From a virus (lineage: Duplodnaviria; Heunggongvirae; Uroviricota; Caudoviricetes): 35,731 bases of DNA. A program made the translations under genes and the position numbers. Below are positions 7,117-35,731 of the stretch, in pieces. Under the pieces are notes generated by a model. That model did not search any database and was not told the origin of the DNA. It worked only from the letters and a program-made list of their open reading frames with translations. Where the stretch lies: IMG/VR virus record IMGVR_UViG_2713896799_000024, positions 1 through 35,731 of that record; one strand, given 5' to 3'. Each line of letters starts with the position of its first letter. Positions within the stretch are counted from its first letter, which is position 1.

Positions 7117-8451
7117 ATGTTTAGCTTAATCATGGCCGGAGAACCGGACGTTTTTGACCGCTGGCCGTGTATGGACCCTGAGCTTAAAGAAGGCAAGGAA
7201 AGCTTCTCGATGTCCCGCATGCTGGAAGGCACCCCAAGCAATATTTACAGAAAATTAACACCAATAAGACCCGATACCTTAAGAGTACTCGCCAAGCTAC
7301 CGGTGTTGTTCATGACCGAAATTTATACAAAAGATGATGAATATGATACAAACAAGTACATCAGGATCAGGCTTGGGGAAATAAGAAATTTACGTAAAGA
7401 TGGTGGCGATATTTTATTTTCTTTCAAGATTAATCATGATTTTGGAGAAATAACAAATCCCCAAACGACATTATATAAAGAAACCCTAGGACTAGGATCT
7501 TTCGGGTTAAGTCGTACACATTGGGCAGTAAAAAATAAGGATTTGAATATTGTTCTGGAATTACTTGGTTTAAACAAAAAAAATAGCCATCTGAAAGGTA
7601 CAATCAAATTAAAAAAACAAACATACCCAGTAGTCGAGAATATTATAGATTATCTTAATTTCATTAAGAAAAACTTTCGTGATGGTCTCATTACCTTCTA
7701 TCGTGGACACTCTAAAAGCTCATATGAGCTTGTCCCCTCTCTTTACAGAAAAAATCAAAACGGGACGTACAGGCATCTTGCTTCAGAATCTGATTTAGTA
7801 CGTGAAATACTCAGCGCAAGACCAAATGAATTTAAGGAGGATAAATTTACGATTGATAAACTTGTCCGCATGCAGCATTATGGCTTGCCTACAAGACTCT
7901 TAGACATTACATCTAACCCACTGATAGCATTATATTTTGCTTGCTGTTCGAACCCCGATGAAAACGGACAGGTGATTTCGTTTTCAACAAACAGAAAGAA
8001 AATTAAATATTTCGACTCAGACACAGTGAGCTGTATAGCAAACTTATCACTTTTATCTTACGAAGAGTTGGAAAAATTGTCTTCCATTGATGCCAGAAAA
8101 GGTAGTATGGAGTTACCTGAACTCACTGATAAACTTGCAGACCTTATACAGAATGAAAAATCATATTTCAGAAACAGAATAATCCCTGATGACTTAAAGA
8201 AAGTTGTTTTCCTTAAGGCAAAAATAAATAATGAACGCATACAATCTCAGGCAGGAGCTTTTCTTCTGTTCGGACTTGATCCCATTTTACCGGAAACAGA
8301 TGCTGAGTTTCCTCTTAACAGAGTGGAGATAGCGAACAAAAATAAAATTCTGGAAGAGCTGGCACAGCTTAATATATCCGAAAGCACTGTATATCCCAGC
8401 ATGGAGAAAACGGCAGCAGAAATTACAAAAAAGTTTTTATCGGTATCATAA
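7117..8451 (+). CDS. Cargo gene at the P2 Z/fun position: FRG-domain protein (444 aa), function unknown, candidate anti-phage/abortive-infection protein
   Basis: AGGAG RBS 6 nt upstream of ATG; translation contains ITFYRGHSKSSYELVPSLYR and RMQHYGLPTRLLDITSNPLIALYFAC, matching the FRG-domain signature (FYRG motif, QHYGLPTRLLD block); visibly AT-rich and on the opposite strand to the flanking late genes. Confidence 0.75.
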   Translation: MFSLIMAGEPDVFDRWPCMDPELKEGKESFSMSRMLEGTPSNIYRKLTPIRPDTLRVLAKLPVLFMTEIYTKDDEYDTNKYIRIRLGEIRNLRKDGGDILFSFKINHDFGEITNPQTTLYKETLGLGSFGLSRTHWAVKNKDLNIVLELLGLNKKNSHLKGTIKLKKQTYPVVENIIDYLNFIKKNFRDGLITFYRGHSKSSYELVPSLYRKNQNGTYRHLASESDLVREILSARPNEFKEDKFTIDKLVRMQHYGLPTRLLDITSNPLIALYFACCSNPDENGQVISFSTNRKKIKYFDSDTVSCIANLSLLSYEELEKLSSIDARKGSMELPELTDKLADLIQNEKSYFRNRIIPDDLKKVVFLKAKINNERIQSQAGAFLLFGLDPILPETDAEFPLNRVEIANKNKILEELAQLNISESTVYPSMEKTAAEITKKFLSVS

Positions 8452-8681: not shown

Positions 8682-9209
8682 TTATTGCGGCATTTCCGGC
8701 CATTCAGGATTTGCAGGATCCACACGGCTGACCAGAACGCTGTAGCGTTCCCATGACTCCAGTCGTGCGCGCTCCTCATCCGTCGCCATATTCAGCCTGA
8801 CGGCGCGTTCCAGCGGCTGGATAACTGATTCAGCTTCGGAAAGTAACGCGGCCTTTTGTGATTCGGCCTGTTGTTGCTGTTCGTCTGCCGTATAAATCCG
8901 CTTAATCACGGCACCATCCTTAAACATCCATTTACCTGAGTCATCAGCACGTCGGTTGGAGGTAATATCAGGAACCTCGACAACGCTGAAACCTTCAGGG
9001 TTAAGCGTTGAAGCATCTCTGGTGATGCCGACAATTATATTATTCTCGTCGTAAACAATCTTTATCGTGTCTTCCTGAAAATTACTTACTTCCTCATACC
9101 AGTTTTTTCCCTCTTCGGACCATAACCAGATAACATCAAAATTTTTTGTCAGTTGATATTGGGCAACAGTTTTTGGATTACCCGCAGTAATATTTTTTAA
9201 ATGCTGCAT
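8682..9209 (-). CDS. G: Tail fibre assembly protein G
   Basis: 175-aa [33 protein letters not shown]..., directly downstream of the tail fibre gene, as P2 gpG. Confidence 0.88.
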
Positions 9210-9212
9210 AAA

Positions 9213-9827
9213 TTACACCTGTGCGACGTTATACCATGTGCCATTGATGTATTTTTGTATTGGCCTGAATACTGCGGGGTCATCACCATCGACTTCACCG
9301 ACAATACCAAGCCCGGTAATTACGTGCCCTGCTTTCTCATACATCACCCCTTTCTGCATGGTCTGGACAACACGTGTGCCAAGTCTGATATCTCTCACAT
9401 AGCGGGAATCAAAGTTACCGTAATCCGAGGGATTAACACGCCCCGTAATATTTATGGTCTTATTACTTTGAATGCTTCCGGAAACAAAGCGCATAACATG
9501 GACGTTATTAGCATAAACATCCAGATTACCATCGCCATTTTGTTTAAATCCGGTGTCGTTATCACCAAGAACAATAGAGTTCCCACCCAACGCGTTATTC
9601 GTGCCAAGTGCCAGCCCGCCATCAATCCTGGCACCATTACCAACAGACACAACTCCTGTTCTTAAGTTGATGCCGAATGGCCTTAATGGCCCAATATCTC
9701 CATTTTCACCCTCATTTTCTCGTGTAGGAATGATATACAGGTTTTCTTCAGAACGGCGAAAAATAGCCCCAAAAGATGAATTAAATATCCTCAGTGCATT
9801 GACTGTAGATATTTTGCGTATTTTCAT
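9213..9827 (-). pseudogene. H: Tail fibre H, 3' fragment separated from the 5' part by an IS21-family insertion
   Basis: 204-aa ORF with G/N-rich beta-strand-like tail-fibre C-terminal sequence; its apparent ATG lies within the IS terminal repeat region and has no RBS; lengths of the two fragments (487+204) approximate intact P2 H. Confidence 0.75.
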
Positions 9828-10007: not shown

Positions 10008-11549
10008 ATGCCAACAGTTCCAATTTCTATGAGAAAACTTAAAGAAATTCTTAGGCTTAAATACGGTGTTGGACTCAGCCATCGACAAATTGGTCGTAGT
10101 CTTGCAATCTCCCCTTCCGTTGTATCCAGATATGCTAATCGGGCGGCTCAACTTGGCATAAAGCAGTGGCCCTTACCTACAGGATGGGATGATACAAAAC
10201 TAAAACATGCGTTCCTTCAGACCCAGGTTAAGATGAAGAAGCACTCTCTGCCTGACTGGGCTACAGTACACCGGGAACTGCGTAATAAATGCGTGACGCT
10301 GCAGCTACTCTGGGAAGAATACTGTGAGCGTAATCCAGGCGGTTTTTACAGCTATAACCATTACTGCCGGATGTACCGTGAATGGCTCAAAACCACTTCA
10401 CCATCAATGCGTCAGGTACATAAAGCTGGCGAAAAACTTTTCGTTGATTACTGTGGACCTACCGTTGGCGTTACCGACCCTGAGACCGGAGAAATAAGAA
10501 CTGCTCAGGTCATCGTAGCTGTTCTCGGGGCATCAAGTTACACATGGGCAGAGGCCACCTGGTCTCAGCAGCTTGAAGACTGGGTGATGAGTCATGTTCG
10601 CTGCTTCCAGTGGTTGGGTGGCGTTCCTGAACTTGTTGTTCCGGACAATCTGAAAAGCGCCACATCCAGGGCATGTAAGTATGATCCTGACGTTAACCCT
10701 ACCTACCAGCAGATGCTTGAGCATTATAATGTCGCAGTTTTGCCTGCGCGGCCACGTAAACCGAAAGATAAAGCCAAAGCTGAAGTTGGCGTTCAGGTTG
10801 TTGAACGCTGGATCATGGCCCGAATCAGGCATGAGATCTTCTACAGCCTTGCATCGCTTAATCAGCGCATTCGGGAGTTGCTGGAAAGACTGAATAACAA
10901 AATAATGCAGAAGTTGGGTTATTCACGTGCAGAACTCTTCATCCAGCTTGATAAACCCGCACTGAAGCCTCTTCCTGAAGCCAGTTACAGTTACACCCTG
11001 GTGAAGAAAGTCAGAGTTCATGCCGATTACCACGTGGAAATCGACAAACATTACTACTCGGTTCCATGTTCGCTGTTAGGCCAGCAACTGGAAGCATGGA
11101 TCTCCGGAGAACTGGTAAGACTCTTCAATCAGGGGCAGGAGGTTGCTGTGCACCCGCGCAAGCGTACTTATGGCTACAGTACCCGCAACGAGCACATGCC
11201 TGAAGCTCATCGACAGCATGCCACCTGGACGCCAGAGCGTCTTCTGGAATGGGCGGGGCACATAGGCAGTGAAACTCATAGTTATGTGCTTCATATACTG
11301 AACTCTCGTCCACATCCGGAACAAAGCTATCGCTTCTGCCTTGGACTCCTGAACCTTCATAAAAAATACAGTAAAGCCAGACTTAATGCAGCATGTGCAA
11401 GAGCTCTGAAAACAAAGGTATGGCGTCTGTCAGGTATTAAATCGATCCTGGAAAAAGGTCTGGATAAACAACCTGTTCAGGATCCAAAACCAGATCTGTT
11501 ATCCACGATGGAACACGAAAACGTACGCGGCAGTGAGTATTACCACTGA
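10008..11549 (+). CDS. istA: IS21-family transposase IstA
   Basis: 513-aa ORF with N-terminal HTH region (LSHRQIGRSLAISPSVVSRY) and central DDE integrase-like region characteristic of IstA. Confidence 0.85.
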   Translation: MPTVPISMRKLKEILRLKYGVGLSHRQIGRSLAISPSVVSRYANRAAQLGIKQWPLPTGWDDTKLKHAFLQTQVKMKKHSLPDWATVHRELRNKCVTLQLLWEEYCERNPGGFYSYNHYCRMYREWLKTTSPSMRQVHKAGEKLFVDYCGPTVGVTDPETGEIRTAQVIVAVLGASSYTWAEATWSQQLEDWVMSHVRCFQWLGGVPELVVPDNLKSATSRACKYDPDVNPTYQQMLEHYNVAVLPARPRKPKDKAKAEVGVQVVERWIMARIRHEIFYSLASLNQRIRELLERLNNKIMQKLGYSRAELFIQLDKPALKPLPEASYSYTLVKKVRVHADYHVEIDKHYYSVPCSLLGQQLEAWISGELVRLFNQGQEVAVHPRKRTYGYSTRNEHMPEAHRQHATWTPERLLEWAGHIGSETHSYVLHILNSRPHPEQSYRFCLGLLNLHKKYSKARLNAACARALKTKVWRLSGIKSILEKGLDKQPVQDPKPDLLSTMEHENVRGSEYYH

Positions 11550-11560
11550 TACGGGATCCA

Positions 11561-12310
11561 ATGATGAATCATCTTTACGAACAACTGACCGCACTTAAAC
11601 TCACCGGCTTCCGTGATGCGCTTAAAAAGCAACTTGCTCAGCCGGGCACATACCAGGAGCTGGGCTTCGAAGAACGCCTGTCATTACTGACAGCAGAAGA
11701 ACTAACCTGCCGTGAAAACAGGAAGGCAGAGCGTCTGATCAAACATGCACGGTTCAGACTTAATGCTGAGTTATCAAAGCTGGATTATCGTAACAATAGA
11801 GGGCTGGACAGGGCCCTCATCCGTTCACTCAGTCAGGGAAACTGGTTAACCCTGAAACAAAATATTTTACTGACCGGGGCCACCGGCAGCGGTAAAACGT
11901 TCCTGGCATGTGCACTTGGTCATAATGCCTGCCGACAGGGATACAAGGTCTACTATTATCGCCTTAAAGCGCTGATGGAACAGTGCTATCAGGGGCATGC
12001 TGATGGAAGATACAGCAAACTTTTGACCAGGCTGAATAATAGCGATCTGCTGCTTCTGGATGACTGGGGGCTGGAACCTCTCTCATCAGAACAGCGTAGC
12101 GACCTGCTGGAAATAGTGGATCTGATGTACCAACGAGGCTCAATCATCGTAGTGAGCCAGTTGCCGGTGGAAAACTGGTACAAAATGATCGGAGACTCCA
12201 CACATGCGGATGCCATCCTAGATCGACTGGTTCATGGCAGTATCAAGATCGAACTTAAAGGAGAATCAATGCGGAAAATACAATCTCCGTTGACCGAAGG
12301 AGATCAGTGA
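11561..12310 (+). CDS. istB: IS21-family helper ATPase IstB
   Basis: 249-aa ORF with Walker A LLTGATGSGKTFLA and Walker B LLLLDDWG; immediately downstream of istA. Confidence 0.88.
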   Translation: MMNHLYEQLTALKLTGFRDALKKQLAQPGTYQELGFEERLSLLTAEELTCRENRKAERLIKHARFRLNAELSKLDYRNNRGLDRALIRSLSQGNWLTLKQNILLTGATGSGKTFLACALGHNACRQGYKVYYYRLKALMEQCYQGHADGRYSKLLTRLNNSDLLLLDDWGLEPLSSEQRSDLLEIVDLMYQRGSIIVVSQLPVENWYKMIGDSTHADAILDRLVHGSIKIELKGESMRKIQSPLTEGDQ

Positions 12311-12380: not shown

Positions 12381-13844
12381 TCACGGTAATACGCATATTT
12401 TTACTTCACTGCTGAAAAGGGCTTTAACAAGAACATACAGAGCATCCCATTTAAGATTCATCAGGTCTTTTGTTGTGGTGCTCTGGCGACTTCTCCATTT
12501 GAAATATTCATTGCCGTTGTCACCTGTTTCAAACCACATATATGAATCAGTATCGCTGTCGGCATCATTTTTAAATCCAATCTTTGCCCAGTCAGTATTT
12601 CGAATCCAGGCAAGGATTGAGTCGTTTTCAAAAGTAAGCCCACCGGACAAGGTATCGCCATTCTTTTGCACCGCGTTCCTGGCCCTGTTTACCGTTTCCT
12701 GCAAACCGAGGTATTCGATAACGGCAGTAACGGTCGCTTTGGCAAGAATATCCCGTCCGACTTTTGTCAGGGTTGCCAGGCTGGCAACATCATTCCCCGT
12801 AAAATACGGAAACCTGTCTGCCGCAGTAGCAAGCCCCGCCAGCGCCGTCAGGGTAGCATCTTTCGGTTGCTTACCCGCAAGCGCATTAGTCATGGTGGTA
12901 GCAAAATTCGGGTCATTGCCCAGCGCCGCCGCCAGCTCGTTCAGCGTATTCAGTGCGTCAGGCGACGAGTCTACAAGGGCGGCAATCGCGGCCATAACGA
13001 AAGCCGTGTTTGCGATCTGAGTATTATTCGTTCCCTGTCGCGCAGTTGGCGTCGTTGGCGTTCCGGTCAGTGCAGGGCTGTTTAATGGCGCTTTTTTGTT
13101 CGTTTCATCCATTACCGTCTTAACGGCTTTTGGTGTTGCGGCGAGCGTTTCAGACGTGCTGTTGGTGGCACTACTGAGCTGGACAAGGCCTTTTCGCGCT
13201 GTGGTGGCGTCCTGTGCGGTATATTTCCCGTTAGCCAGGTCATACGCGGCCTTTACCGCTTTCGGCGTTGCGGCCAGTGTTTCAGACGTGCTGTTGGTCG
13301 CACTGCTTAACTGAGTAAAACCTTTTGCGGTCAGCGAGGCGTCCGGGTGACGTCGTGACTGTTCGTGCTCTGCAATTTTGTCATCAACGTAATCTTGCGT
13401 CGCCATCACCGTTGTGGTGTCAATGGTCAGCTCCACTGAGGCCACACTGCTGACGATGATGACCATGCGGCAGGTCTGCGAACGCCCTGAGCCTTCGGCA
13501 AGGGCAGGTTTATAACTTTCGGCCATGTTCGCCACGGCAATTAACGTTCCCGCATCATCGTACAGGCCAAGCTCCCGCATCCAGAAACCGCCCACCTCCG
13601 GCGGAATAATCAGCTCTGCGATAATATAATTACTGTTTCGTTTGTCCTGGCTGATTTTATTCAGCGCATGTCGCCAGACTTCATGGATAAGCCCGGTCTG
13701 TCCGGCATCCGGGACAGGCAATTTACCACCGCCATCCCCGACGGCCATCGTGGTAATGTTGACCTTTCGCCCTCCCGGCGCGGTTGCCGCTGCCAGCTTT
13801 GCTGCACCGGCAGTGGTGATAACGGTTTTGAATTTTGTGCTCAT
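12381..13844 (-). pseudogene. H: Tail fibre H, 5' fragment; reading frame runs into the IS21-family element and terminates
   Basis: 487-aa ORF starting MSTKFKTVITTAGAAKLAAA (P2 gpH N-terminus); last residues (KICVLP-stop) are encoded by the IS terminal repeat. Confidence 0.85.
13119..13330 (-). repeat. Tandem duplication inside H (two ~80-bp homologous units, period 132 bp), encoding repeated QLSSATNSTSETLAATPKAVK
   Basis: Near-identical nucleotide blocks at ~13119-13198 and ~13251-13330; the repeat is visible in the protein and in the antisense ORF 13096-13314. Confidence 0.8.
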
Positions 13845-15290: not shown

Positions 15291-15638
15291 TCAACTCACA
15301 GGGATGGTTAACGAAAGTGGCTGGCCGGTGTCGTTGTGCTGGCCGGTTAACGTGACCGTCATTCGCCCGTCAAAGCTGCGCGCCGTGGTGACGGATGACA
15401 GGGTGACGCGGGGTTCCCATTTCAGCACCGCCATGTAACAGGCGACCTTAATCTGCAACTCAAGCGCCGGGGTCTGCGGCTGGTCAATCATTGATGCCAG
15501 CAACGAGCCGTAATCACGACGCATCACCCGTGAGCCGACCGGTGTACGCAGGATATCGCCGATACTCTGGCTGATATGCTCAAGGTCAGTGACAGTCAGG
15601 CCATCACTGCGATTCATTCCGAGATAACGCGCTGTCAT
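15291..15638 (-). CDS. W: Baseplate protein W (gp25-like)
   Basis: 115-aa ORF between V and J. Confidence 0.88.
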   Translation of the reverse strand: MTARYLGMNRSDGLTVTDLEHISQSIGDILRTPVGSRVMRRDYGSLLASMIDQPQTPALELQIKVACYMAVLKWEPRVTLSSVTTARSFDGRMTVTLTGQHNDTGQPLSLTIPVS

Positions 15639-16270
15639 AAAGGACTCCCGGTTGTGCCACCGCTGTCGCCGGGGTGTTTATGGGTATGCAGTACCTTACC
15701 GTTTGATGAGAGTTCACCGCCGGTATGTTCAATGTTGCCGCGCATCGTCCCGCCCTTCTGCACTTCCAGCGTGCCGATAATCAGCCTGTTGGTGCAGACC
15801 ACCTCCGGGGTGTCCAGGGTGACGCGGGTTGATGCTTTCACCATGACCACCGGCACCGTGGCAGTAACAGAATCAGAGGCCGTCACGCTGGCCGTTTTAA
15901 TTCCGCTTACCGTAAGTGCACTGGTTTCGGGTTCATATTCAATCACCGCCCCGTCAGGGAAACGGATATGCAGGGCATCCGCCGACGCAGACGGCGCGGG
16001 GTTATCGCCGGAATAAATCCCCGGCAGAACGAACGCCGTGTCGAGTTCACCGCCCACGGCCAGAATCAGCACCTGTTCCCCCACGGAAGGTGCCCACCAT
16101 GTGCGCGAACGCCCGGCGCGATGGGTCAGCCACTGAAGCCAGTCGGTGCACATGCCGCCGGTCTGCACACGGCAGCGACCGGCGTTAAGGTCGGTTTCGA
16201 CGACAAGGCCGGTACGAATCATGTTGCGCAGTGCGCGCGCGAGTTCCTGAATATTTGCGAGAGTGTTCAT
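15635..16270 (-). CDS. V: Baseplate spike/assembly protein V
   Basis: Translation from MNTLANIQELARALRNMIRTGLVVETD... (211 aa); the upstream in-frame extension to 16315 is rejected because it abuts the late-promoter dyad. No clear SD before either candidate start. Confidence 0.85.
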   Translation of the reverse strand: MNTLANIQELARALRNMIRTGLVVETDLNAGRCRVQTGGMCTDWLQWLTHRAGRSRTWWAPSVGEQVLILAVGGELDTAFVLPGIYSGDNPAPSASADALHIRFPDGAVIEYEPETSALTVSGIKTASVTASDSVTATVPVVMVKASTRVTLDTPEVVCTNRLIIGTLEVQKGGTMRGNIEHTGGELSSNGKVLHTHKHPGDSGGTTGSPL

Positions 16271-16317
16271 AACGGGAAGGATGCCGCCAAGAAAGCAGCA
16301 CGGCAAACCTCCCATTA

Positions 16318-16352: not shown

Positions 16353-17879
16353 TTATTCCTCATTCTCTTTTCCATTTAAGAGCATTCTTTTTTCACATAT
16401 TTTTTCAACAAGCAAGTTTGCAAATGTATCTAGCTGTGCGTATATATCCTCACTAGGATTTATGGTAAAACCTCCAATGCCATTGGCAGTATCAAACATG
16501 CCAACAGGTGCATCACTATATCTTAAAGGAATAACACACCCATCACCAAATCTATCCCTAAATGTATCACCTTCAAATTTGCACCATATTCTAGTTGGAT
16601 AATCCCTACTCAAAAACGGAATTACAAAAACAGACTCACTCCTATAAATTGGAGCAAGATATTGTTCTACATCTTCAGAAAGTATTCTGGCCTGCTCATT
16701 GAAATCATAAAAAACAGATAACTCATTCTCAATCAGCTTTTGATTTAAATATTCCGCATGATTTCTATTAGCTCCAGCAAATGATAAAGCAAAGTCATAT
16801 TTCGACTTAAACTCAAATGATGTGAACCCTATCTTCTCCGCAAGCTTGCTCCATAACAAATTCTTTATATAATAATAAAACTTGGGATCTTCGATTGAAA
16901 TCTCCGTAGTTTCATCATTATAATGAATAACATCCGAAAAATCAGGATTGCTCTCATAATGCGTTTTTAAATGGCCTCGCGTCAGAATTTGCCCAACGCT
17001 ATTACGATGATTAGGATTGTTAATTAAATAACTTGTCAAATTTAAAGAACGCTCATCTTCTTTAGATAACCAATATAAAACGTGGAGATATGGAGCTCTA
17101 CTACCCTTTTTAACCCGCTGGCCTTTCACAAAGCGAACGACTATATCATTGAATCTATAGCTAAGATCCTGAATCACTGTTTCTTTAAGTGATTCATAGC
17201 TAATATTTGTTTCCCGAGGAGATTCTAACTCTTCTGTGATATCAGCCTGTAAACAAGCATTATAAGCCAACATTTGCGCCAGATGAAATGCCCCATCCGA
17301 GTCCTTTACAATATCTTCTTTTACATTTAGTTTGAAATTAAGCGCATTCTCACCTTTTTCTAGCAACTCCCTGACCTTATATTCCGGATTGGACTCAAAT
17401 TTAACAATGGAGATTCGATTTAGTAAATCCGGTGATAAATCAATCAGTGATTTGCCTGTTTTATTTATACCTATAATAATCAACTTAGAATCTAAGGGTT
17501 GTTCATCCGCTAAATTTTTCAGCAAGTCAGATATTTTATGCTTCAACTCATCATCTAACTTATGAAAATCATCAATAATCACCCCACCGAAACCACTCGT
17601 TGTTATTATATTTTCAATCTGGGCTTTATCTTCCTTTTTCCTTCCAGACAATACTTTAAACTCTTTAATTATCCGACTACTGGTCTCGAATTTTAACTTT
17701 TCAATAACCTGTCTTACGCAAGTCGTCTTCCCTATACCTGATGGCCCTTCAATAATTACCCCTCTTCCCGCTGTTCTTATCGACACATAGAGGTGTTTAT
17801 ACTCGTTAGGTTCAACAAAAGTAATTGTCGGGATACCCGAAAGTTTAAAGACATCTTCTAAATACACTGGTTCGCGCAT
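16353..17879 (-). CDS. Cargo gene between S and V: P-loop NTPase (N-terminal) fused to TIR domain (C-terminal), 508 aa; candidate single-gene anti-phage defence protein
   Basis: Walker A GPSGIGKTT, Walker B GGVIIDDFHKLD; C-terminal YDFALSFAGANRNHAEYL...SVFYD...SVFVIPFLSRDYPTRIWCKFEG matches the TIR fold signature, including the WC..E glutamate that is catalytic in TIR NADases. AAGGGA RBS before ATG; visibly AT-rich. Confidence 0.8.
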   Translation of the reverse strand: MREPVYLEDVFKLSGIPTITFVEPNEYKHLYVSIRTAGRGVIIEGPSGIGKTTCVRQVIEKLKFETSSRIIKEFKVLSGRKKEDKAQIENIITTSGFGGVIIDDFHKLDDELKHKISDLLKNLADEQPLDSKLIIIGINKTGKSLIDLSPDLLNRISIVKFESNPEYKVRELLEKGENALNFKLNVKEDIVKDSDGAFHLAQMLAYNACLQADITEELESPRETNISYESLKETVIQDLSYRFNDIVVRFVKGQRVKKGSRAPYLHVLYWLSKEDERSLNLTSYLINNPNHRNSVGQILTRGHLKTHYESNPDFSDVIHYNDETTEISIEDPKFYYYIKNLLWSKLAEKIGFTSFEFKSKYDFALSFAGANRNHAEYLNQKLIENELSVFYDFNEQARILSEDVEQYLAPIYRSESVFVIPFLSRDYPTRIWCKFEGDTFRDRFGDGCVIPLRYSDAPVGMFDTANGIGGFTINPSEDIYAQLDTFANLLVEKICEKRMLLNGKENEE

Positions 17880-17994: not shown

Positions 17995-18444
17995 TTATTC
18001 TAGATGGTTAGAGATAATCCCTTCAATCATCTGCACATCCTCACCGGTAAAGCCGAGCAGAGGACGCGCCGGATAATCAATTTTCTTACCGTCTTTCCGG
18101 TTTTCTTCCGACAGACCGAACTGATGCACACTGGCGATTTTCGGTGACTTTCCGCCGTAAAACTCCATTGATGCCTGTTCCGGGCTGGCGCGGATATGCA
18201 AAAAACGACTGGTGATAAGTTTCGCAAACATTTTTCGTTTAACGCGACCGGTCTTTTTTCTGGCGCTCTGCTGCTGGCGTGGTGCGTAGGGTGTGCCGTC
18301 CGGGGCTTTCTGTGCCATCACCCGACGCTGCTGACTCTGACGCAGACGTTTCGCCAGTTCGGCACTCAGTCGCCGACGCCCTGACGGTGACAGCGACTCA
18401 ATCAGTCCGGTCAGCCGGTCTTCAAAACGCTTAAACTCATTCAT
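17995..18444 (-). CDS. S: Tail completion protein S
   Basis: 149-aa ORF MNEFKRFEDRLTGLIESL..., overlaps R stop. Confidence 0.88.
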   Translation of the reverse strand: MNEFKRFEDRLTGLIESLSPSGRRRLSAELAKRLRQSQQRRVMAQKAPDGTPYAPRQQQSARKKTGRVKRKMFAKLITSRFLHIRASPEQASMEFYGGKSPKIASVHQFGLSEENRKDGKKIDYPARPLLGFTGEDVQMIEGIISNHLE

Positions 18445-24296: not shown

Positions 24297-24365
24297 ACAG
24301 CACCTTAGCGAATCGCGGGGCGCGACTCAGTAGCCTTGCCGTGTATTCATCACGGCGAGGTATTC

Positions 24366-26138
24366 ATGACCATCACCACAGACACCACTCTTTTACACGA
24401 CCCGCGTCGTCAGGCGGCGCTGCTGTACTGGCAGGGATTTTCCGTGCCGCAGATTGCCGCCATGTTGCAGATGAAACGCCCGACGGTGCAGAGCTGGAAA
24501 CAGCGCGACGGCTGGGACAGCGTTGCCCCCATCAGCCGTGTCGAAATGAGCCTGGAAGCGCGGCTGACCCAGCTCATCATCAAACCGCAGAAAACCGGCG
24601 GTGACTTCAAGGAAATTGACCTGCTGGGACGCCAGATTGAACGACTGGCACGGGTAAATCGCTACAGCCAGACCGGCAACGAGGCAGACCTTAATCCGAA
24701 CGTCGCTAACCGCAACAAAGGCGGGCGGCGCAAACCGAAAAAGAATTTTTTCAGTGACGAGGCCATCGAAAAGCTGGAGCAGATTTTCTTTGAGCAGTCT
24801 TTCGAATATCAGTTGCACTGGTATCGCGCCGGGCTTGAGCACCGCATCCGCGATATTCTGAAATCCCGCCAGATTGGCGCGACGTTTTATTTTTCCCGCG
24901 AGGCGCTGCTGCGTGCCCTGAAAACCGGTCATAACCAGATTTTTCTGTCGGCCAGTAAAACGCAGGCGTATGTGTTCCGCGAATACATCATCGCCTTTGC
25001 CCGTCTGGTTGACGTTGACCTTACCGGTGACCCGATTGTCCTGGGCAATAACGGCGCAAAACTGATTTTTCTCGGCACCAACTCCAACACCGCACAGAGC
25101 CATAACGGCGACCTGTACGTCGACGAGATTTTCTGGATCCCGAATTTTCAGGTACTGCGTAAGGTGGCATCAGGTATGGCCTCACAGAGTCACCTGCGCT
25201 CGACCTATTTCTCCACCCCGTCCACGCTGGCGCACGACGCCTATCCGTTCTGGTCCGGTGAACTGTTCAACCGGGGACGCGCCAGCGCCGCTGAACGCGT
25301 GGAAATCGACGTCAGTCATAACGCCCTTGCCGGTGGGCTTCTCTGTGCGGACGGCCAGTGGCGGCAGATTGTCACCATTGAAGACGCCCTGAAAGGCGGC
25401 TGCACATTGTTCGACATTGAGCAGCTCAAACGCGAAAACAGCGCCGACGATTTTAAAAACCTGTTCATGTGTGAATTTGTTGACGACAAGGCATCGGTGT
25501 TCCCGTTCGAGGAGTTGCAACGCTGCATGGTCGACACGCTGGAAGAATGGGAAGACTACGCGCCGTTTGCCGCAAATCCGTTCGGCCCCCGCCCGGTATG
25601 GATTGGTTACGACCCGTCACACCGTGGCGACAGCGCCGGATGCGTGGTGCTGGCACCGCCGGTGGTGGCCGGAGGTAAATTCAGAATACTTGAGCGTCAC
25701 CAGTGGAAAGGCATGGACTTTGCCACCCAGGCGGAGTCCATCCGCAAACTCACCGAAAAATACAACGTCGAATACATCGGTATTGATGCCACCGGCCTCG
25801 GTGTCGGCGTGTTCCAGCTCGTGCGCTCGTTCTATCCCGCCGCGCGCGATATCCGCTACACACCGGAAATGAAAACCGCAATGGTGCTCAAGGCAAAAGA
25901 CGTCATCCGCCGTGGCTGTCTGGAATATGACGTCAGCGCCACCGACATCACCAGCTCGTTTATGGCTATCCGCAAGACCATGACCAGCAGCGGACGCAGC
26001 GCCACCTATGAGGCCAGCCGCAGCGAGGAAGCCAGCCACGCCGACCTCGCCTGGGCGACCATGCACGCCCTGTTAAATGAGCCACTCACCGCCGGTATCA
26101 GCACCCCGCTGACATCCACCATTCTGGAGTTTTACTGA
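24366..26138 (+). CDS. P: Terminase large (ATPase) subunit P
   Basis: Translation from MTITTDTTLLHDPRRQAALLYW... with GAGG SD 6-9 nt upstream; divergent from O. Confidence 0.92.
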   Translation: MTITTDTTLLHDPRRQAALLYWQGFSVPQIAAMLQMKRPTVQSWKQRDGWDSVAPISRVEMSLEARLTQLIIKPQKTGGDFKEIDLLGRQIERLARVNRYSQTGNEADLNPNVANRNKGGRRKPKKNFFSDEAIEKLEQIFFEQSFEYQLHWYRAGLEHRIRDILKSRQIGATFYFSREALLRALKTGHNQIFLSASKTQAYVFREYIIAFARLVDVDLTGDPIVLGNNGAKLIFLGTNSNTAQSHNGDLYVDEIFWIPNFQVLRKVASGMASQSHLRSTYFSTPSTLAHDAYPFWSGELFNRGRASAAERVEIDVSHNALAGGLLCADGQWRQIVTIEDALKGGCTLFDIEQLKRENSADDFKNLFMCEFVDDKASVFPFEELQRCMVDTLEEWEDYAPFAANPFGPRPVWIGYDPSHRGDSAGCVVLAPPVVAGGKFRILERHQWKGMDFATQAESIRKLTEKYNVEYIGIDATGLGVGVFQLVRSFYPAARDIRYTPEMKTAMVLKAKDVIRRGCLEYDVSATDITSSFMAIRKTMTSSGRSATYEASRSEEASHADLAWATMHALLNEPLTAGISTPLTSTILEFY

Positions 26139-27172
26139 TGAGCAAGAAAAAAGGGAAAACACCGCAACCTGCGGCAAAAAAAATGACCGCCAGCGCCCCG
26201 AAAATGGAGGCATTCACCTTTGGTGAGCCGGTGCCGGTACTCGACCGCCGTGACATTCTGGATTACGTCGAGTGCATCAGTAACGGCAGATGGTATGAGC
26301 CACCGGTCAGCTTTACCGGTCTGGCAAAAAGCCTGCGTGCTGCCGTGCATCACAGCTCACCGATTTACGTCAAACGTAATATTCTGGCCTCGACATTTAT
26401 CCCGCATCCGTGGCTTTCCCAGCAGGATTTCAGCCGCTTTGTGCTGGATTTTCTGGTGTTCGGTAATGCGTTTCTGGAAAAGCGTTACAGCACCACCGGT
26501 AAGGTCATCAGACTGGAAACCTCACCGGCAAAATATACCCGCCGTGGCGTGGAAGAGGATGTTTACTGGTGGGTGCCGTCCTTCCATGAGCCGACACCTT
26601 TCGCGCCCGGCTCCGTGTTTCACCTGCTGGAGCCGGATATTAATCAGGAGCTGTACGGCCTGCCGGAATATCTCAGCGCCCTTAACTCTGCCTGGCTGAA
26701 TGAGTCGGCCACGCTGTTCCGCCGCAAGTATTACGAAAACGGCGCACATGCCGGATACATCATGTACGTCACCGATGCCGTGCAGGATCGCAACGATATC
26801 GAAATGCTCCGCGAAAACATGGTGAAGTCGAAAGGCCGCAACAACTTTAAAAATCTGTTTCTCTATGCCCCGCAGGGGAAAGCCGACGGCATTAAAATTA
26901 TCCCGCTCAGTGAAGTGGCGACGAAGGACGATTTTTTTAATATCAAAAAAGCCAGCGCCGCTGACCTGCTGGACGCACACCGCATCCCCTTTCAGTTGAT
27001 GGGCGGCAAGCCGGAGAACGTCGGGTCACTGGGAGATATTGAGAAAGTGGCAAAGGTCTTTGTCCGCAATGAGCTTATCCCGTTACAGGACAGGATCCGC
27101 GAGATAAACGGCTGGCTCGGTCAGGAGGTCATCCGCTTTAAAAACTACTCACTGGCCACTGACAACGGCTGA
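26138..27172 (+). CDS. Q: Portal protein Q
   Basis: 344-aa ORF, ATGA overlap with the P stop. Confidence 0.92.
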   Translation: MSKKKGKTPQPAAKKMTASAPKMEAFTFGEPVPVLDRRDILDYVECISNGRWYEPPVSFTGLAKSLRAAVHHSSPIYVKRNILASTFIPHPWLSQQDFSRFVLDFLVFGNAFLEKRYSTTGKVIRLETSPAKYTRRGVEEDVYWWVPSFHEPTPFAPGSVFHLLEPDINQELYGLPEYLSALNSAWLNESATLFRRKYYENGAHAGYIMYVTDAVQDRNDIEMLRENMVKSKGRNNFKNLFLYAPQGKADGIKIIPLSEVATKDDFFNIKKASAADLLDAHRIPFQLMGGKPENVGSLGDIEKVAKVFVRNELIPLQDRIREINGWLGQEVIRFKNYSLATDNG

Positions 27173-27177
27173 ACATC

Positions 27178-27199
27178 GCCGCCTGCGGGCGGCTTTTTT
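27178..27199 (+). terminator. Rho-independent terminator after Q
   Basis: gccgcc-tgcg-ggcggc hairpin followed by TTTTTT, 6 bp after the Q stop codon. Confidence 0.8.
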
Positions 27200-27341: not shown

Positions 27342-27360
27342 GTGCTTTCCCCGCCTCGCC
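27342..27360. other. cos: P2-type cos site (19-nt cohesive end, reverse complement of GGCGAGGCGGGGAAAGCAC)
   Basis: Exact 19-mer gtgctttccccgcctcgcc present between Q and the A-side region, where P2 cos lies in prophage orientation; the cos sequence is recalled from memory. Confidence 0.7.
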
Positions 27361-27575
27361 TGCCCGCTTTATGGGTCGGTTTTAATGCAGGTGCACGAAT
27401 ACACCGGAGGCGCGCCGGCACTGGTGGCGCTCAGACGCAACAGGGGAGGAAAACGCATGCAATTGAATGCATTTCTAGGCACACCTAAAAATGAAAAAAT
27501 GTTATGACAATTAATCATTTTAAACACACTGATTAAGGGTAGAATTCTCCTAGTAAAATCATAGAAAAACCGCTA

Positions 27576-28505
27576 TCAAACCAGGCTTTTGCCTTGCTTC
27601 ATTTTTTTAGATGAGTCTAAAAATTTGAAATTACCATTAGATGAAAATATTCTTTCTGCGGTATGCCGAATGACTGAAGTATTGAAGACCGCAGCCTGCT
27701 CCTCATTACAACTGAATACACCCTCATGACCATCAAACTCGCCCGCCAAAAGAAGGTTTTTTGATACTGGGAACAAAACTAAAGTGTCTTTTACACCAAA
27801 CCCGGGGGAATAAGGGCCTCGTGCTAATTCAGGATTAGTCCACATTAAGCAAACTGGGTTATCTGAAGTTATAAATGACCCTTGCCCATCAGATATGGTC
27901 ATAAGTGACCAGTTGCGTTGATGCAACAACTTGGTGATAACAGGTACACATTTCATTTCCATATCTATCATGAACTCTCTGATTACATTGATTTCGAAAT
28001 TATCCCCATCCACAAAATTTTTAATTTTTTCGTAAGCGAGATCATATGGCAAAGACTCACCCATTTCTTTCTCATAAGCTAATTTGCAATCGTCCCAACG
28101 CTCAGCCGAACTAACTGAGGATTTCATGATAAACTTTGCTATTTGTTTCAATGGAGATGATAAATGTTCTCGCTGAGCAGGCGTACGTATTGCCAATAAG
28201 GAAATAAACTCCAGAATAACATCTTTGGTTTCGCCTGAAAACTCGCCCCCCTCCTCAAGTTTTCTTAAATGAGTAGCGACACTGCCTTCAAACTCTGCAA
28301 GAGAACTCTCGAGATAGTTTGGGTCAACTCCATCCAATTCTAATCGGTTGAAATCTCTAACCCCCCCGACATTGCGAGTATTACTCTCAAAGGTTTTGCG
28401 CTCCTTTAAATCTATTACAGTTAATTTTGATTTTTTCCCCCCATTACTTGTAAACCCTTTCAAATAACATTGGGATAAAAAATGATGATGCCTTGCAACA
28501 CTCAT
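27576..28505 (-). CDS. Cargo gene at the P2 tin/old position: DUF4238-like protein (309 aa), candidate single-gene anti-phage protein
   Basis: Translation from MSVARHHHFLSQCYLKGFTSNGG... (HH-x-P/S-Q-x-YL-x-GF N-terminal signature of DUF4238); GGAG SD 7 nt upstream; visibly AT-rich; downstream of A on the same strand, where P2 carries tin/old. Confidence 0.7.
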   Translation of the reverse strand: MSVARHHHFLSQCYLKGFTSNGGKKSKLTVIDLKERKTFESNTRNVGGVRDFNRLELDGVDPNYLESSLAEFEGSVATHLRKLEEGGEFSGETKDVILEFISLLAIRTPAQREHLSSPLKQIAKFIMKSSVSSAERWDDCKLAYEKEMGESLPYDLAYEKIKNFVDGDNFEINVIREFMIDMEMKCVPVITKLLHQRNWSLMTISDGQGSFITSDNPVCLMWTNPELARGPYSPGFGVKDTLVLFPVSKNLLLAGEFDGHEGVFSCNEEQAAVFNTSVIRHTAERIFSSNGNFKFLDSSKKMKQGKSLV

Positions 28506-28608
28506 ACTCAGCTCCGTTATGGCTATAATCGCATAAATAATAAGCACTTATATTGCAATCATCTAGTTAAATACACAATATTTATGACTCCGAAATTTCA
28601 TTAAATCA

Positions 28609-30822
28609 CTATTGATAGGTTTTACCAATTAGTGCCAGCTCGAAATGGATGCGTGGAATCTGCGAACGTTCAGCCTTTGTCATCCGCCCTGATGGCGCTA
28701 TCTGGTACGGTTTTAATGGTTCGCAGTTTCTTTGTTGCCAATTCGGTCTCGGTGCACCATGTTTTAATGCACTCCTGAGCACCGTCACAACTTCCGGGTC
28801 ATCCCATCCGATAACACCACTATCAACCAGATTTAACACCGCTGCGGCATGCTCAGACGGTGTAGGGTGCATAACCGGAACGTCACCGCCGGTGAACTTT
28901 CCACAGTTATTGACAGGACTCCGAGGCGCTGCGATGCCGCTTTTTAAAGTCAAAGGCTCAACGACCGGAACTTTCGGCACAATGCGCCAGTTCGTCGTTC
29001 TGGTGATATGAATATGACGCGCGCCGAGATGCGGCGCGTAAATGCCGACCACTCTCTCGACCTCTTCCTCGTACTCGTTAACATCATCCGACGGGCTACG
29101 GGCAACCCTGACAGTCTGACAATCGCGCGGGACATTTGCCCCACCCTGCGCGCTGATATACAACGCAAAATCACCACTGTCTGCGGCAGCGCGAGCAGCC
29201 TCGACGCGTTCGTCAAACTCATCAGCAATACTGACGCCGCGAGGCAATTTGCGTAGTTCACGGTAAGCCCCCATTGTCGGCAGTCCAACCGTTTTAAATT
29301 GCGGGATGCGCCACGTTGACGCCCATGCGGTAACAGCCGCGGCAGTATCTTTAAGCGGCTTACCGGTATCGTTATCGAGCTGACCATCCAGTGCATAGCC
29401 GTCGATATTTTTTGAAATGTATTTCGCGATATATCCCGCAGCACCGCCCCGATTAAGGTGTTTTGCCTGAAAACGGTTTCGCGCGGCTCCTCTTTCGTCG
29501 CCATCCTCTTTGAGCGCATAGCGACGCATGATTTCGATAATCTGGTTACGCTGGCGCGGATTACAAAAAAGCATCATATGCCAGTGCGGCGTTCCGTCGT
29601 GGTGTGGCTCGACGACACGCAAACCGTAGACCTGTAAATCATTATCCTTGAATGCCGTGCGCATCAGGCTCCAGATACGGCAGAGATAACGCTGCGCATC
29701 CTTTGGATTGAATGCCTCATCATTCCAGCCGTGATTAAGCTGGACGGTTTTACTTTCGCCTTTTCCGACCTGACGTGTCGGGTGATACTTTGACGGCGCG
29801 GTCAGCGTGATAAACATCCCCACATCACCCTCTGCGGCGGCGTAACGCTCAATACCGGCAATGGTGTTCATCAGCTCCATCCGGCGAATTTCAGGATTAG
29901 AAATACTGCCCATCACCTTACTGATAAGGTCGATGCGCTCGCCGGTTTCCCTGTTTTCAAGGTCACACGATTTAAGAAATTCCAGATTTGCCTGGCGGCG
30001 CGCACGCACATCACGAATGGCGTGTTTACTGGCATAAGGAGAACGGTCTTTATTGACCTCCCCGACAGCTATCAGTAACGCTTCATGCCAGCGCATACGC
30101 TGGCCTTTAAGCTGATGAGTCCACCACTCATCGTTAAACAGACGGGCAATGGCAGAATATGCCTGCCTCGTGGTCATCAGCCCTTTACGGTATTTTTTCC
30201 AGTAGAGAGGGGAAATATTGAAAGCACGTGCAGCGCCAGCAACATGACCATAGAGGTGAGCCTGCGCCTCATCCGTAAACAGCGATTCTTTTTCGCCATG
30301 CGCATCCACCCAGGCATCGCTGAGTTCCTCATACATCATGAAAAGCTGCGATGAGATACGGGCAGCAAACTTTTTCAGCTCCTTGTCATTCATTCCCGGC
30401 AGGCGCGCATAGTGGTCACGCTCTGCCAGAAACAGTAACGACGCGTCGGTGTTCATTTCATGGCGCTGATTCACACGCTCAATGCGCGGCCATAAACGAC
30501 GCTGAAAAGTGGATGTGAGGAAATAAAACCCGTGCACCGGGCTTTTATTGCGCCGGATGTAGTCATAGCGTGAAGTAAACAGCGAGCGCAAAAAGTAAGG
30601 CAGGCGGTTAATCGTGGATAAAACACCTTGCACCTGACGCATCTCGTCACGTGTAAGGGGTCTTTCGCGCCCGACGGCCTCGCGTGGCGCGTTCCATGCA
30701 TAAGCACCGGTAAACGCCTTACCGGTGCCTGCAGCAAATGCTGACGGAGGGACAAAACGCCCGGAGGCTTTAACGGCCATATGAGCCAAAAGCCTCTGAA
30801 CAACGCCTGCTGAGTTGCTCAA
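28609..30822 (-). CDS. A: Replication initiation protein A (rolling-circle HUH endonuclease); start codon uncertain (30822 or 30780)
   Basis: 737-aa ORF containing HUH-like motif PHWHMMLF and a YxxK-type region; P2 gpA-like throughout. Confidence 0.88.
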   Translation of the reverse strand: MSNSAGVVQRLLAHMAVKASGRFVPPSAFAAGTGKAFTGAYAWNAPREAVGRERPLTRDEMRQVQGVLSTINRLPYFLRSLFTSRYDYIRRNKSPVHGFYFLTSTFQRRLWPRIERVNQRHEMNTDASLLFLAERDHYARLPGMNDKELKKFAARISSQLFMMYEELSDAWVDAHGEKESLFTDEAQAHLYGHVAGAARAFNISPLYWKKYRKGLMTTRQAYSAIARLFNDEWWTHQLKGQRMRWHEALLIAVGEVNKDRSPYASKHAIRDVRARRQANLEFLKSCDLENRETGERIDLISKVMGSISNPEIRRMELMNTIAGIERYAAAEGDVGMFITLTAPSKYHPTRQVGKGESKTVQLNHGWNDEAFNPKDAQRYLCRIWSLMRTAFKDNDLQVYGLRVVEPHHDGTPHWHMMLFCNPRQRNQIIEIMRRYALKEDGDERGAARNRFQAKHLNRGGAAGYIAKYISKNIDGYALDGQLDNDTGKPLKDTAAAVTAWASTWRIPQFKTVGLPTMGAYRELRKLPRGVSIADEFDERVEAARAAADSGDFALYISAQGGANVPRDCQTVRVARSPSDDVNEYEEEVERVVGIYAPHLGARHIHITRTTNWRIVPKVPVVEPLTLKSGIAAPRSPVNNCGKFTGGDVPVMHPTPSEHAAAVLNLVDSGVIGWDDPEVVTVLRSALKHGAPRPNWQQRNCEPLKPYQIAPSGRMTKAERSQIPRIHFELALIGKTYQ

Positions 30823-32920: not shown

Positions 32921-32994
32921 CCAGAGCTATTTGAAGCCGCTCTGCGTTGTTCTGGTGTGTCGCATACAACATAAATTACGAGATACGACAATTC

Positions 32995-33306
32995 ATGTCA
33001 AATACACAAATCACATCTCAAGCAGAGAAACTCGCACTTATTCGGGAATCAGAAAGAATGACAAGGAAGCAAGTTGCTGAATTAACTGGAATTAACTACA
33101 ACACCTATGCTGGATATGAGCAGGGAAAAGTAAAGATGTCTTTTGACGCAGGTATGAAATTTTTCAAGCCAGAAAGATTTCGCAAGTACCGTGACTGGTT
33201 CATGTTTGATGAAACTGATCCCGCTGGCGGACAAATAGCCCCGGCGCTCGCGCACATTGGGCAAGACTCAACAACCTTGCACCACTCAGACCAAAAGACT
33301 GGCTGA
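32995..33306 (+). CDS. C: Immunity repressor C (HTH)
   Basis: Translation from MSNTQITSQAEKLALIRESERMTRKQVAELTGINYNTYAGYEQGK...; C-terminus ...GQIAPALAHIGQDSTTLHHSDQKTG is P2 C-like; divergent from cox. Confidence 0.88.
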   Translation: MSNTQITSQAEKLALIRESERMTRKQVAELTGINYNTYAGYEQGKVKMSFDAGMKFFKPERFRKYRDWFMFDETDPAGGQIAPALAHIGQDSTTLHHSDQKTG

Positions 33307-33537: not shown

Positions 33538-33628
33538 TAGACTGGCCCCCTGAATCTCCAGACAACCAGTATCACTTAAATAAGTGATAGTCTTAATACT
33601 AGTTTTTAGACTAGTCATTGGAGAACAG

Positions 33629-33994
33629 ATGATTGATGTCTTAGGGCCGGAGAAACGCAGACGGCGTACCACACAGGAAAAGATCGCAATTGTTCAGCAG
33701 AGCTTTGAACCGGGGATGACGGTCTCCCTCGTTGCCCGGCAACATGGTGTAGCAGCCAGCCAGTTATTTCTCTGGCGTAAGCAATACCAGGAAGGAAGTC
33801 TTACTGCTGTCGCCGCCGGAGAACAGGTTGTTCCTGCCTCTGAACTTGCTGCCGCCATGAAGCAGATTAAAGAACTCCAGCGCCTGCTCGGCAAGAAAAC
33901 GATGGAAAATGAACTCCTCAAAGAAGCCGTTGAATATGGACGGGCAAAAAAGTGGATAGCGCACGCGCCCTTATTGCCCGGGGATGGGGAGTAA
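33629..33994 (+). CDS. insC: IS2 transposase OrfA (InsC)
   Basis: Translation [41 protein letters not shown]... (121 aa). Confidence 0.92.
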
Positions 33995-34857
33995 GCTTAG
34001 TCAGCCGTTGTCTCCGGGTGTCGCGTGCGCAGTTGCACGTCATTCTCAGACGAACCGATGACTGGATGGATGGCCGCCGCAGTCGTCACACTGATGATAC
34101 GGATGTGCTTCTCCGTATACACCATGTTATCGGAGAGCTGCCCACGTATGGTTATCGTCGGGTATGGGCGCTGCTTCGCAGACAGGCAGAACTTGATGGT
34201 ATGCCTGCGATCAATGCCAAACGTGTTTACCGGATCATGCGCCAGAATGCGCTGTTGCTTGAGCGAAAACCTGCTGTACCGCCATCGAAACGGGCACATA
34301 CAGGCAGAGTGGCCGTGAAAGAAAGCAATCAGCGATGGTGCTCTGACGGGTTCGAGTTCTGCTGTGATAACGGAGAGAGACTGCGTGTCACGTTCGCGCT
34401 GGACTGCTGTGATCGTGAGGCACTGCACTGGGCGGTCACTACCGGCGGCTTCAACAGTGAAACAGTACAGGACGTCATGCTGGGAGCGGTGGAACGCCGC
34501 TTCGGCAACGATCTTCCGTCGTCTCCAGTGGAGTGGCTGACGGATAATGGTTCATGCTACCGGGCTAATGAAACACGCCAGTTCGCCCGGATGTTGGGAC
34601 TTGAACCGAAGAACACGGCGGTGCGGAGTCCGGAGAGTAACGGAATAGCAGAGAGCTTCGTGAAAACGATAAAGCGTGACTACATCAGTATCATGCCCAA
34701 ACCAGACGGGTTAACGGCAGCAAAGAACCTTGCAGAGGCGTTCGAGCATTATAACGAATGGCATCCGCATAGTGCGCTGGGTTATCGCTCGCCACGGGAA
34801 TATCTGCGGCAGCGGGCTTGTAATGGGTTAAGTGATAACAGATGTCTGGAAATATAG
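33952..34857 (+). CDS. insD: IS2 transposase OrfB (InsD), expressed as an OrfAB fusion by -1 frameshift at AAAAAAG (33946-33952)
   Basis: 301-aa DDE-transposase ORF overlapping insC; slippery heptamer A6G sits at the overlap. Confidence 0.9.
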
Positions 34858-34868
34858 GGGCAAATCCA

Positions 34869-35731
34869 ACTACCACAACAAAGAGTGGCTGGAGAAGCCA
34901 GCCGACCGCCGAACTCTTACAGAGTTGTTAGGCAGATGGTGGATATATCACGGAAAATCACATGAGCGTGGAAATATTGAACGGGGGCGTTTGACGACAA
35001 TAATCGCCAAATTTGCAGAAATGGGAGTGTCCAGAGCTGACCAGTTAACAAAGAAAACGATAACTGATTATCGAGTTGTAATGATGAACGATGGTCTAAA
35101 ACCAGCCAGCGTAAATCGGCATCTGGCAATAATGAGCGGGATGTTCACCAAGTTAATTGACGCCGGTGAATACCACTCTCACAACCCGTTCCGTGAGGTT
35201 AAGCGGTTACGTGAAGCTGTTACAGAAATGGCTTTTTTGTCCAGTGAAGAGATTACGCGGCTGTTATCCATGCTTGATGGTGATGAGTTAAATGCAACTC
35301 TGGTCTGCCTTTCTACTGGTGGACGCTGGAGTGAAGTGTCTAATTTGAAAGCTGAACACATCATTAACCAGATGGTTACGTTTATGAAAACTAAAAACGG
35401 AAAGCGCAGGACAATTCCCGTTTCGCAGGACCTGATTAAAAGGATCAAGACCAAAAATTCAGGCAGGCTTTTTAATGCCAGTTACTACAAAGTGCGTAAC
35501 GCTCTCAGGGAAGTAAAACCCGATTTACCTGACGGACAAGCAGTACATGTTTTGAGGCATACATTTGCCACACATTTTATAATGAATGGAGGTAACATAA
35601 TCACATTGCAGCGCATCCTGGGTCATTCTAACATTCAGCAAACTATGACCTACGCACACTTTGCACCGGATTTCTTACAAGATGCTGTGACTCTTAACCC
35701 GGTGTCAGGAATGTCCATAATGCGTCCATAA
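34869..35731 (+). pseudogene. int: Integrase, 3' fragment (tyrosine recombinase catalytic domain), separated from its 5' end by IS2
   Basis: In-frame continuation YHNKEWLEKPADRR... through HxxR and the catalytic-Tyr region (LGHSNIQQTMTYAHF); stop at the last base of the window. Confidence 0.9.

Follow-up and report, generated by a model that had tools for sequence, protein, structure and literature searches.

The cos-proximal locus between gpA and gpQ of P2-like phages has been described as a defence hotspot in which genes occur in 1,650 arrangements (Rousset et al., 2022, Cell Host Microbe 30:740; PMC9122126). In that study, eight further hotspot systems were cloned with their native promoters on a low-copy plasmid in MG1655, and among these the single DUF4238 gene of E. 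coli TA007 (plasmid pFR101, Table S2) conferred strong resistance to T7, the sole phage reported to be blocked by DUF4238 among eight tested. The 200 bp located 5' of the TA007 gene were enough for activity of the native-promoter clone, and a 'DUF4238 + hypothetical' arrangement also appears in the table of that work (PMC9122126). According to a second report, an E. coli TIR-domain defence system contains a DUF4238 domain and cannot defend without its TIR NADase site (Nat Commun 2024, PMC11350192). A 2024 survey listed Rst_DUF4238 as unclassifiable, and our literature search found neither a mechanistic study of DUF4238 (PF14022) nor published abortive-infection data for it.

The DNA analyzed here (35,731 nucleotides, referred to as the window) is a P2-like prophage in inverted orientation with respect to the standard P2 map. 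The region corresponding to the hotspot is composed of the following features:

24336..26138, plus strand: large terminase gene P, located beyond cos together with Q
26138..27172, plus strand: portal gene Q (PF04860), the far hotspot boundary beyond cos
27178..27193, after Q: terminator-like hairpin (terminator scan)
27342..27360, minus strand: P2-type cos cohesive-end sequence GGCGAGGCGGGGAAAGCAC, an exact 19-nt match that aligns to the P2 cosR feature
27390..28646, no strand assigned: variable cargo cassette (blastn against P2 NC_001895), with the DUF4238 gene alone inside and taking the place of orf91-tin-old
27576..28505, minus strand: DUF4238 gene, 309 aa with the stop codon included in the coordinates (ORF; PF14022; PADLOC DUF4238-Pers; 92% identity to the TA007 protein; dN/dS 0.10)
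28609..30822, minus strand: replication initiator gene A (PF05840 Phage_GPA, E = 3e-123; 98.9% identical to pro483 gpA), the upstream hotspot boundary

In a blastn comparison, homology to P2 (NC_001895) ends at position 28647, inside the 3' end of A, and restarts at 27389 at cos, indicating that about 1.26 kb with a single gene replaces the 3.4-kb orf91-tin-old block of P2. The 19-nt cohesive-end sequence of P2 has one exact match in the window and none in 100 shuffles. Within the cassette, the ORF listing of the window places a 309-aa ORF at 27576..28505 (minus strand), which has the same orientation as gene A. Its GC content is 0.393 and its GC3 0.359, whereas genes A and Q have a GC content of 0.529 and 0.535, respectively, which marks the ORF as compositionally foreign to its neighbours. 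The initial annotation had reported an AT-rich ORF of this length and position, downstream of A at the tin/old slot next to cos, and the ORF listing, the GC content, the positions of A and cos and the blastn break all agree with this description. The gene thus lies in the cos-proximal gpA-gpQ hotspot, a location that describes the founding example of the system and is no requirement for membership.

Translation of the DUF4238 ORF from the ATG at 28505 to the stop codon at 27578-27576 yields a protein with the N-terminus MSVARHHHFLSQCYLKGF. The longest open frame (27576..28547, minus strand) encodes 323 aa from a GTG, with the ATG at 28505 being internal, and this in-frame GTG at 28547 would add 14 residues to the protein. 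The ATG is preferred because of a GGAG motif 6 nt upstream, the annotated start in pro483 and the N-termini of 56 homologs, all of which (56/56) begin 3-5 residues ahead of the RHHH motif. The protein has a mass of 34.8 kDa and a pI of 6.1 and is devoid of hydrophobic segments. Two features were noted upstream of the gene:

28512..28515, minus strand: GGAG ribosome-binding site, 6 nt 5' of the ATG, read from the sequence and the same in all four aligned upstream regions
28557..28587, minus strand: 31-nt block TCATAAATATTGTGTATTTAACTAGATGATT from the upstream alignment, unchanged between the window allele and the diverged TA007-type allele

The 31-nt block is a candidate promoter or operator region. 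A consensus scan upstream of the gene identified no clean consensus site for a sigma-70 promoter, and the promoter position is one that we infer.

The protein matched the Pfam family PF14022 (DUF4238) with 134.3 bits against a gathering cutoff of 27 (E = 7e-39), residues 7-290 aligning to model positions 2-279 of 281, and the PADLOC model PDLC03000 (DUF4238-Pers) with 724.9 bits over its full length (1-309 of 309). The sole match among the PHROGs was phrog_29785, a family of 'unknown function'. Pfam and PADLOC returned only DUF4238, no second family emerged from these two sources or from the PDB, and a scan against NCBIfam gave no match. All motifs of the family are present, namely the N-terminal H-x-x-x-Q-x-Y-L-x-x-F, two Glu residues in the first long helix and the F-I-T-S-D-x-P-V loop; within the N-terminal start motif, which the initial annotation had already recognized, H7, H8, Q12, L15 and F18 are invariant in the 56 homologs. 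The architecture is that of a single-gene system, as the cassette (27390..28646) contains one gene and no recurrent partner occurs among the neighbour ORFs of its homologs. An identity as P2 Old or Tin was considered and rejected, since only DUF4238 was found in Pfam and PADLOC and the gene lacks nucleotide homology to the tin-old region of P2. The HMM searches that the initial annotation had named, against PF14022 and against defence models (run here on PADLOC), hence both gave strong matches; homology to an unrelated protein of known function was looked for in Pfam, NCBIfam, PADLOC and the PDB and none appeared, and the statement that DUF4238 has been reported as a single-gene anti-phage system of P2 hotspots is confirmed by PMC9122126.

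The window gene is therefore very probably a member of the Rst_DUF4238 defence system. Judged from its sequence, we consider it to be a functional allele of this system, present as exchangeable cargo at the gpA-cos-gpQ hotspot of a P2-like prophage that is now defective, with a probability of roughly 85%. As such, it represents an intact copy of a published single-gene system in the usual variable slot of P2, and the finding is not new: the 2022 publication already covers the system, the fact that it consists of a single gene, the P2 hotspot and the activity against T7, and near-identical copies are annotated in pro483 and in E. coli genomes.

The remainder of the prophage contains further cargo and insertion elements:

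7117..8451, plus strand: FRG-domain gene, 444 aa (PF08867, E = 3e-22; PADLOC candidate system PDC-S15, 328 bits; GC about 0.36)
10008..12310, plus strand: IS21-family element with istA (10008..11549) and istB (11561..12310)
16353..17879, minus strand: AAA+TIR gene, 508 aa, with an N-terminal AAA ATPase and a C-terminal TIR_2 match at E = 4e-6, just under the Pfam cutoff (GC 0.35)
33584..34857, plus strand: IS3-family element with an HTH_Tnp_1 ORF and an rve ORF

The FRG-domain gene occupies the Z/fun cargo position of P2 between the genes for the tail sheath (5412..6602) and tail-fibre assembly (8682..9209). The AAA+TIR gene, which also has a weak PADLOC match to PDC-S59 (68 bits), is located between the baseplate spike gene V (15635..16315) and the tail completion gene S (17995..18444), and its 508-aa product may correspond to the 'TIR + AAA' system class of PMC11350192. 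At the level of candidates, the proposal of the initial annotation that this damaged prophage harbours two more defence genes is therefore upheld. As to the damage, the IS21-family element interrupts the tail-fibre gene H, leaving an N-terminal (12381..13844) and a C-terminal (9213..9827) portion, both on the minus strand, and the prophage is unable to make normal tail fibres. The IS3-family element separates the integrase ORF (34832..35731), which reaches the window edge, from a C-repressor-like HTH gene (32947..33306), and int is probably disrupted at its 5' end or in its expression.

The window protein is identical to the tested TA007 protein at 285 of 309 positions (92%) without gaps. At the nucleotide level, the window gene and the TA007-type allele differ at 87 positions, giving 24 amino-acid differences and a dN/dS of 0.099 at a dS of 0.39. 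Over residues 1-86, 19 changes are synonymous and none alters an amino acid, and the 24 replacements all avoid the columns that are invariant among the 56 homologs. The DUF4238 gene is thus under strong purifying selection.

Genes with 99.7-100% identity were identified in phage pro483, in 14 complete E. coli genomes and in several P2-like contigs of IMG/VR. Among 5,426 complete E. coli genomes, these 14 carry the allele, in every case on the chromosome and as a single copy. The scan of IMG/VR revealed the gene order A-DUF4238-cos-Q-P in nine P2-like contigs, as it is also present in pro483; two contigs (L015 and L016) carry the TA007-type allele. One contig (L008, IMG/VR UViG_2773857934_000012, positions 5534..6460) has a DUF4238 gene identical to the window copy over 927 of 927 nt, and the gpA and gpQ proteins of its backbone are only about 81% identical to those of the window, indicating a recent cassette exchange between diverged P2-like phages. 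At codon 291 (27634..27636), a column that is not conserved, the window and this contig encode Gly and pro483 encodes Asp, a difference of one nucleotide and one amino acid.

These data also bear on the possibility that the defective prophage carries the gene only as a silent or decaying passenger, or that the gene serves a role other than defence, and that its host gains no phage resistance. Such a passenger would be in keeping with a prophage whose tail-fibre gene is interrupted by IS21 and which has an IS3-family element beside int, with the lack of a consensus promoter, and with the occurrence of truncated variants of 245-257 aa in other strains (P0003, P0004). However, the ORF is full-length and has kept all invariant residues at a dN/dS of 0.10, its ribosome-binding site and the 31-nt upstream block are identical to those of the active TA007 construct, and the presence of an identical copy in another P2-like backbone speaks for a working cassette that has spread recently. 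Given the signal of purifying selection in particular, we regard an inactive passenger as very unlikely. The sequence features rather suggest that a probably active defence gene persists in this defective prophage beside the two other candidate defence cargo genes.

Two observations were made on DUF4238 genes elsewhere. In Kluyvera intermedia (NZ_JAKCNS010000008; L032 5001..7942), a DUF4238 gene with 98% identity is followed after about 350 bp by a fused PARIS AriAB gene (PADLOC AriAB, 441 bits), an adjacency that indicates two defence systems stacked at one locus in another genus. A distant relative with 23% identity, 368 aa in length and with a C-terminal extension, occurs on a further IMG/VR contig (UViG_2891108613_000003; L023 1390..7107), with a gpA-like replication gene (41% identity) at a distance of about 4 kb. 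Distant P2-like phages may hence carry divergent DUF4238 genes as well, and the match to phage Smp131 described below agrees with this.

The deep alignment, which adds viral-contig relatives of 20-36% identity, revealed 14 residues that are invariant down to 20% identity (H8, Y14, L15, E66, E73, L194, F211, T213, D215, P217, V218, L220, P246 and N275) and six that are nearly invariant (Q12, F18, R107, P109, R112 and W199). The window protein retains every invariant residue. The helical region of residues ~115-175 is poorly conserved and rich in indels. A confident AlphaFold2 model based on the 56-sequence alignment (pLDDT 89.8, pTM 0.86) consists of an N-terminal beta hairpin, a helix bundle (64-195) and a C-terminal beta-rich domain. 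Foldseek against the PDB identified no solved-structure relative (best E = 0.15), and a profile search of PDB sequences returned nothing below E = 0.4. Against the BFVD, Foldseek matched only an uncharacterized protein of Smp131, a P2-like phage of Stenotrophomonas. When all 56 homologs were scanned permissively against Pfam and PADLOC, no recurrent weak second family appeared.

Several known enzyme classes were compared to this conservation pattern. An assignment as a HEPN RNase, suggested by R107-x6-H114, was ruled out, as H114 is not conserved. The His-Me/HNH, PD-(D/E)xK, 2H phosphoesterase, Pol-beta nucleotidyltransferase and H-Y-E ADP-ribosyltransferase classes were rejected since motif spacing or the order of secondary-structure elements did not fit and there was no supporting fold match.

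At E <= 1e-3, the DUF4238 family comprises 7,425 representative clusters from Proteobacteria and other groups, with members on plasmids and in prophages of several types, and the best 150 of these 7,425 relatives are nearly all single-domain proteins of 300-335 aa. Homologs were found on 23 plasmids, 15 of which are conjugative, in islands of P. aeruginosa and P. yamanorum, and on a contig with phage-plasmid-like genes as judged by gene content (CobT, DNA ligase, integrase). In an integrative element of E. coli the homolog adjoins type I restriction-modification and GmrSD genes, in a Vibrio prophage a KAP NTPase gene, in Citrobacter a putAbiC gene, and in a Bathymodiolus symbiont AbiJ_NTD5 and Abi_C genes. 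For a survey of partners, the closest ORF with a length of 110 aa or more was collected on either side of the gene from 74 species-representative genomes, and the resulting 107 ORFs were scanned against Pfam and PADLOC. Matches among these ORFs included PLD/DrmC-like, AAA_21/AriA, AbiH, ThsA, type ISP and IIG restriction enzymes, reverse transcriptase, PDC-S06/S39 and HEC-08. A defence-gene neighbourhood of DUF4238 homologs is thus recurrent. No conserved partner gene, TIR included, was detected in these 74 genomes, as no family occurred in more than three of the 107 neighbour ORFs, strongly indicating that there is no obligatory partner.

The latter result is relevant to the question of whether DUF4238 is chiefly a phage-sensing or adaptor module, the stand-alone form of which would work through a host effector or pathway. 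The E. coli TIR system with a DUF4238 domain, for which PMC11350192 describes a need for the TIR NADase site, fits a sensor at least as well as an effector, and the structure model has no recognizable catalytic fold. On the other hand, the stand-alone gene was active in E. coli K-12 MG1655 without an added partner, and no conserved neighbour occurred in the 74 genomes from many genera, so that a host effector, if required, would need to be a universal one. A mere sensor or adaptor is therefore quite unlikely in our view.

For the mode of action of the functional allele proposed above, we favour a self-contained latent sensor plus enzyme. That the DUF4238 protein is a self-contained enzyme has, from its sequence features, about an even chance of being correct. 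In this model, the lysogen would produce a soluble cytoplasmic protein of about 35 kDa from the gene's own promoter, which would combine recognition and effector functions as a self-contained latent sensor plus enzyme. The residues kept to 20% identity would form the catalytic centre: His8 in the H-x-x-x-Q-x-Y-L motif, Glu66, Glu73, Arg107/Arg112, Thr213/Asp215 in the F-I-T-S-D-x-P-V loop, and Asn275. This centre would probably be metal-dependent and act on a phosphate-bearing substrate, e.g., nucleic acid or a nucleotide, and the variable helical segment (~115-175) may tune recognition. The enzyme would remain latent until a component or an activity of a T7-like phage triggers it, upon which infection would halt, most likely via arrest of the host. 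Only tentatively, and with the odds somewhat against it, does the context point to abortive infection or growth arrest as the outcome instead of a selective attack on the phage.

The main rival to the self-contained latent enzyme is a direct, non-lethal block of a T7-specific step, in which DUF4238 binds or modifies a T7-specific component and the cell survives. Possible targets would be genome entry driven by the T7 RNA polymerase, replication or packaging. The narrow spectrum, with T7 being the only one of eight phages affected, fits a T7-specific target, and the gene is tolerated from its native promoter without an antitoxin or partner gene. However, 7,425 clusters across Proteobacteria and beyond are hard to square with a target confined to T7-like phages, and a variable middle region beside an invariant polar core is more like a sensor plus enzyme. 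Direct interference thus appears improbable, if less so than the sensor or adaptor.

A further-reaching version of the self-contained enzyme is rather unlikely. The family might be the founding member of a structurally unclassified enzyme class without a solved-structure relative, with a His/Glu/Glu/Arg/Asp/Asn centre catalyzing a reaction new to phage defence and the variable helical segment sensing the phage. If true, diverged alleles such as those of the window and TA007 would recognize different phages. The remaining interest accordingly lies in the biochemical mechanism of DUF4238, for which no structural or sequence relative of known function was found here.

Compared to the systems described previously, the window gene shares with tin and old of P2 the slot between A and cos and the nature of prophage cargo excluding unrelated phages. 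In contrast, Old is an AAA ATPase/Toprim nuclease directed against lambda and Tin acts against T-even phages, and neither is related to DUF4238 in sequence or domains; also, transcription of tin and old starts at a promoter near cos and proceeds towards A, while the DUF4238 gene and A share one direction of transcription. The TIR system, as described in PMC11350192, likewise contains a DUF4238 domain within an experimentally active anti-phage system, but its defence needs the TIR NADase, and the window protein stands alone without a TIR domain. Much closer is ORF11 of pro483 (NC_028943; YP_009211908), annotated as 'DUF4238 domain-containing protein', with 99.9% nucleotide and 99.7% protein identity, the same flanking genes and 99% identical gpA, gpQ and gpP. 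Its sole residue difference is D291 versus G291 in the window protein, and pro483 is an intact inducible phage in contrast to the window prophage with its IS insertions.

The closest experimentally active system is Rst_DUF4238 of TA007 (gene DUF4238_Pers in DefenseFinder/PADLOC), which agrees with the window gene in family, length (309 aa), single-gene organization and position in the gpA-cos/gpQ slot of a P2-like prophage, and has the same ribosome-binding site and the same 31-nt upstream block. It differs by the 24 substitutions, all of which occur after residue 86 and none at invariant positions, and the TA007-type allele resides in a more divergent P2-like backbone (gpQ and gpP about 80% identical in L015 and L016). 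These substitutions could alter or abolish specificity. With all 24 located outside the invariant core, the window allele provides a natural second allele next to that of TA007 for studies on specificity.
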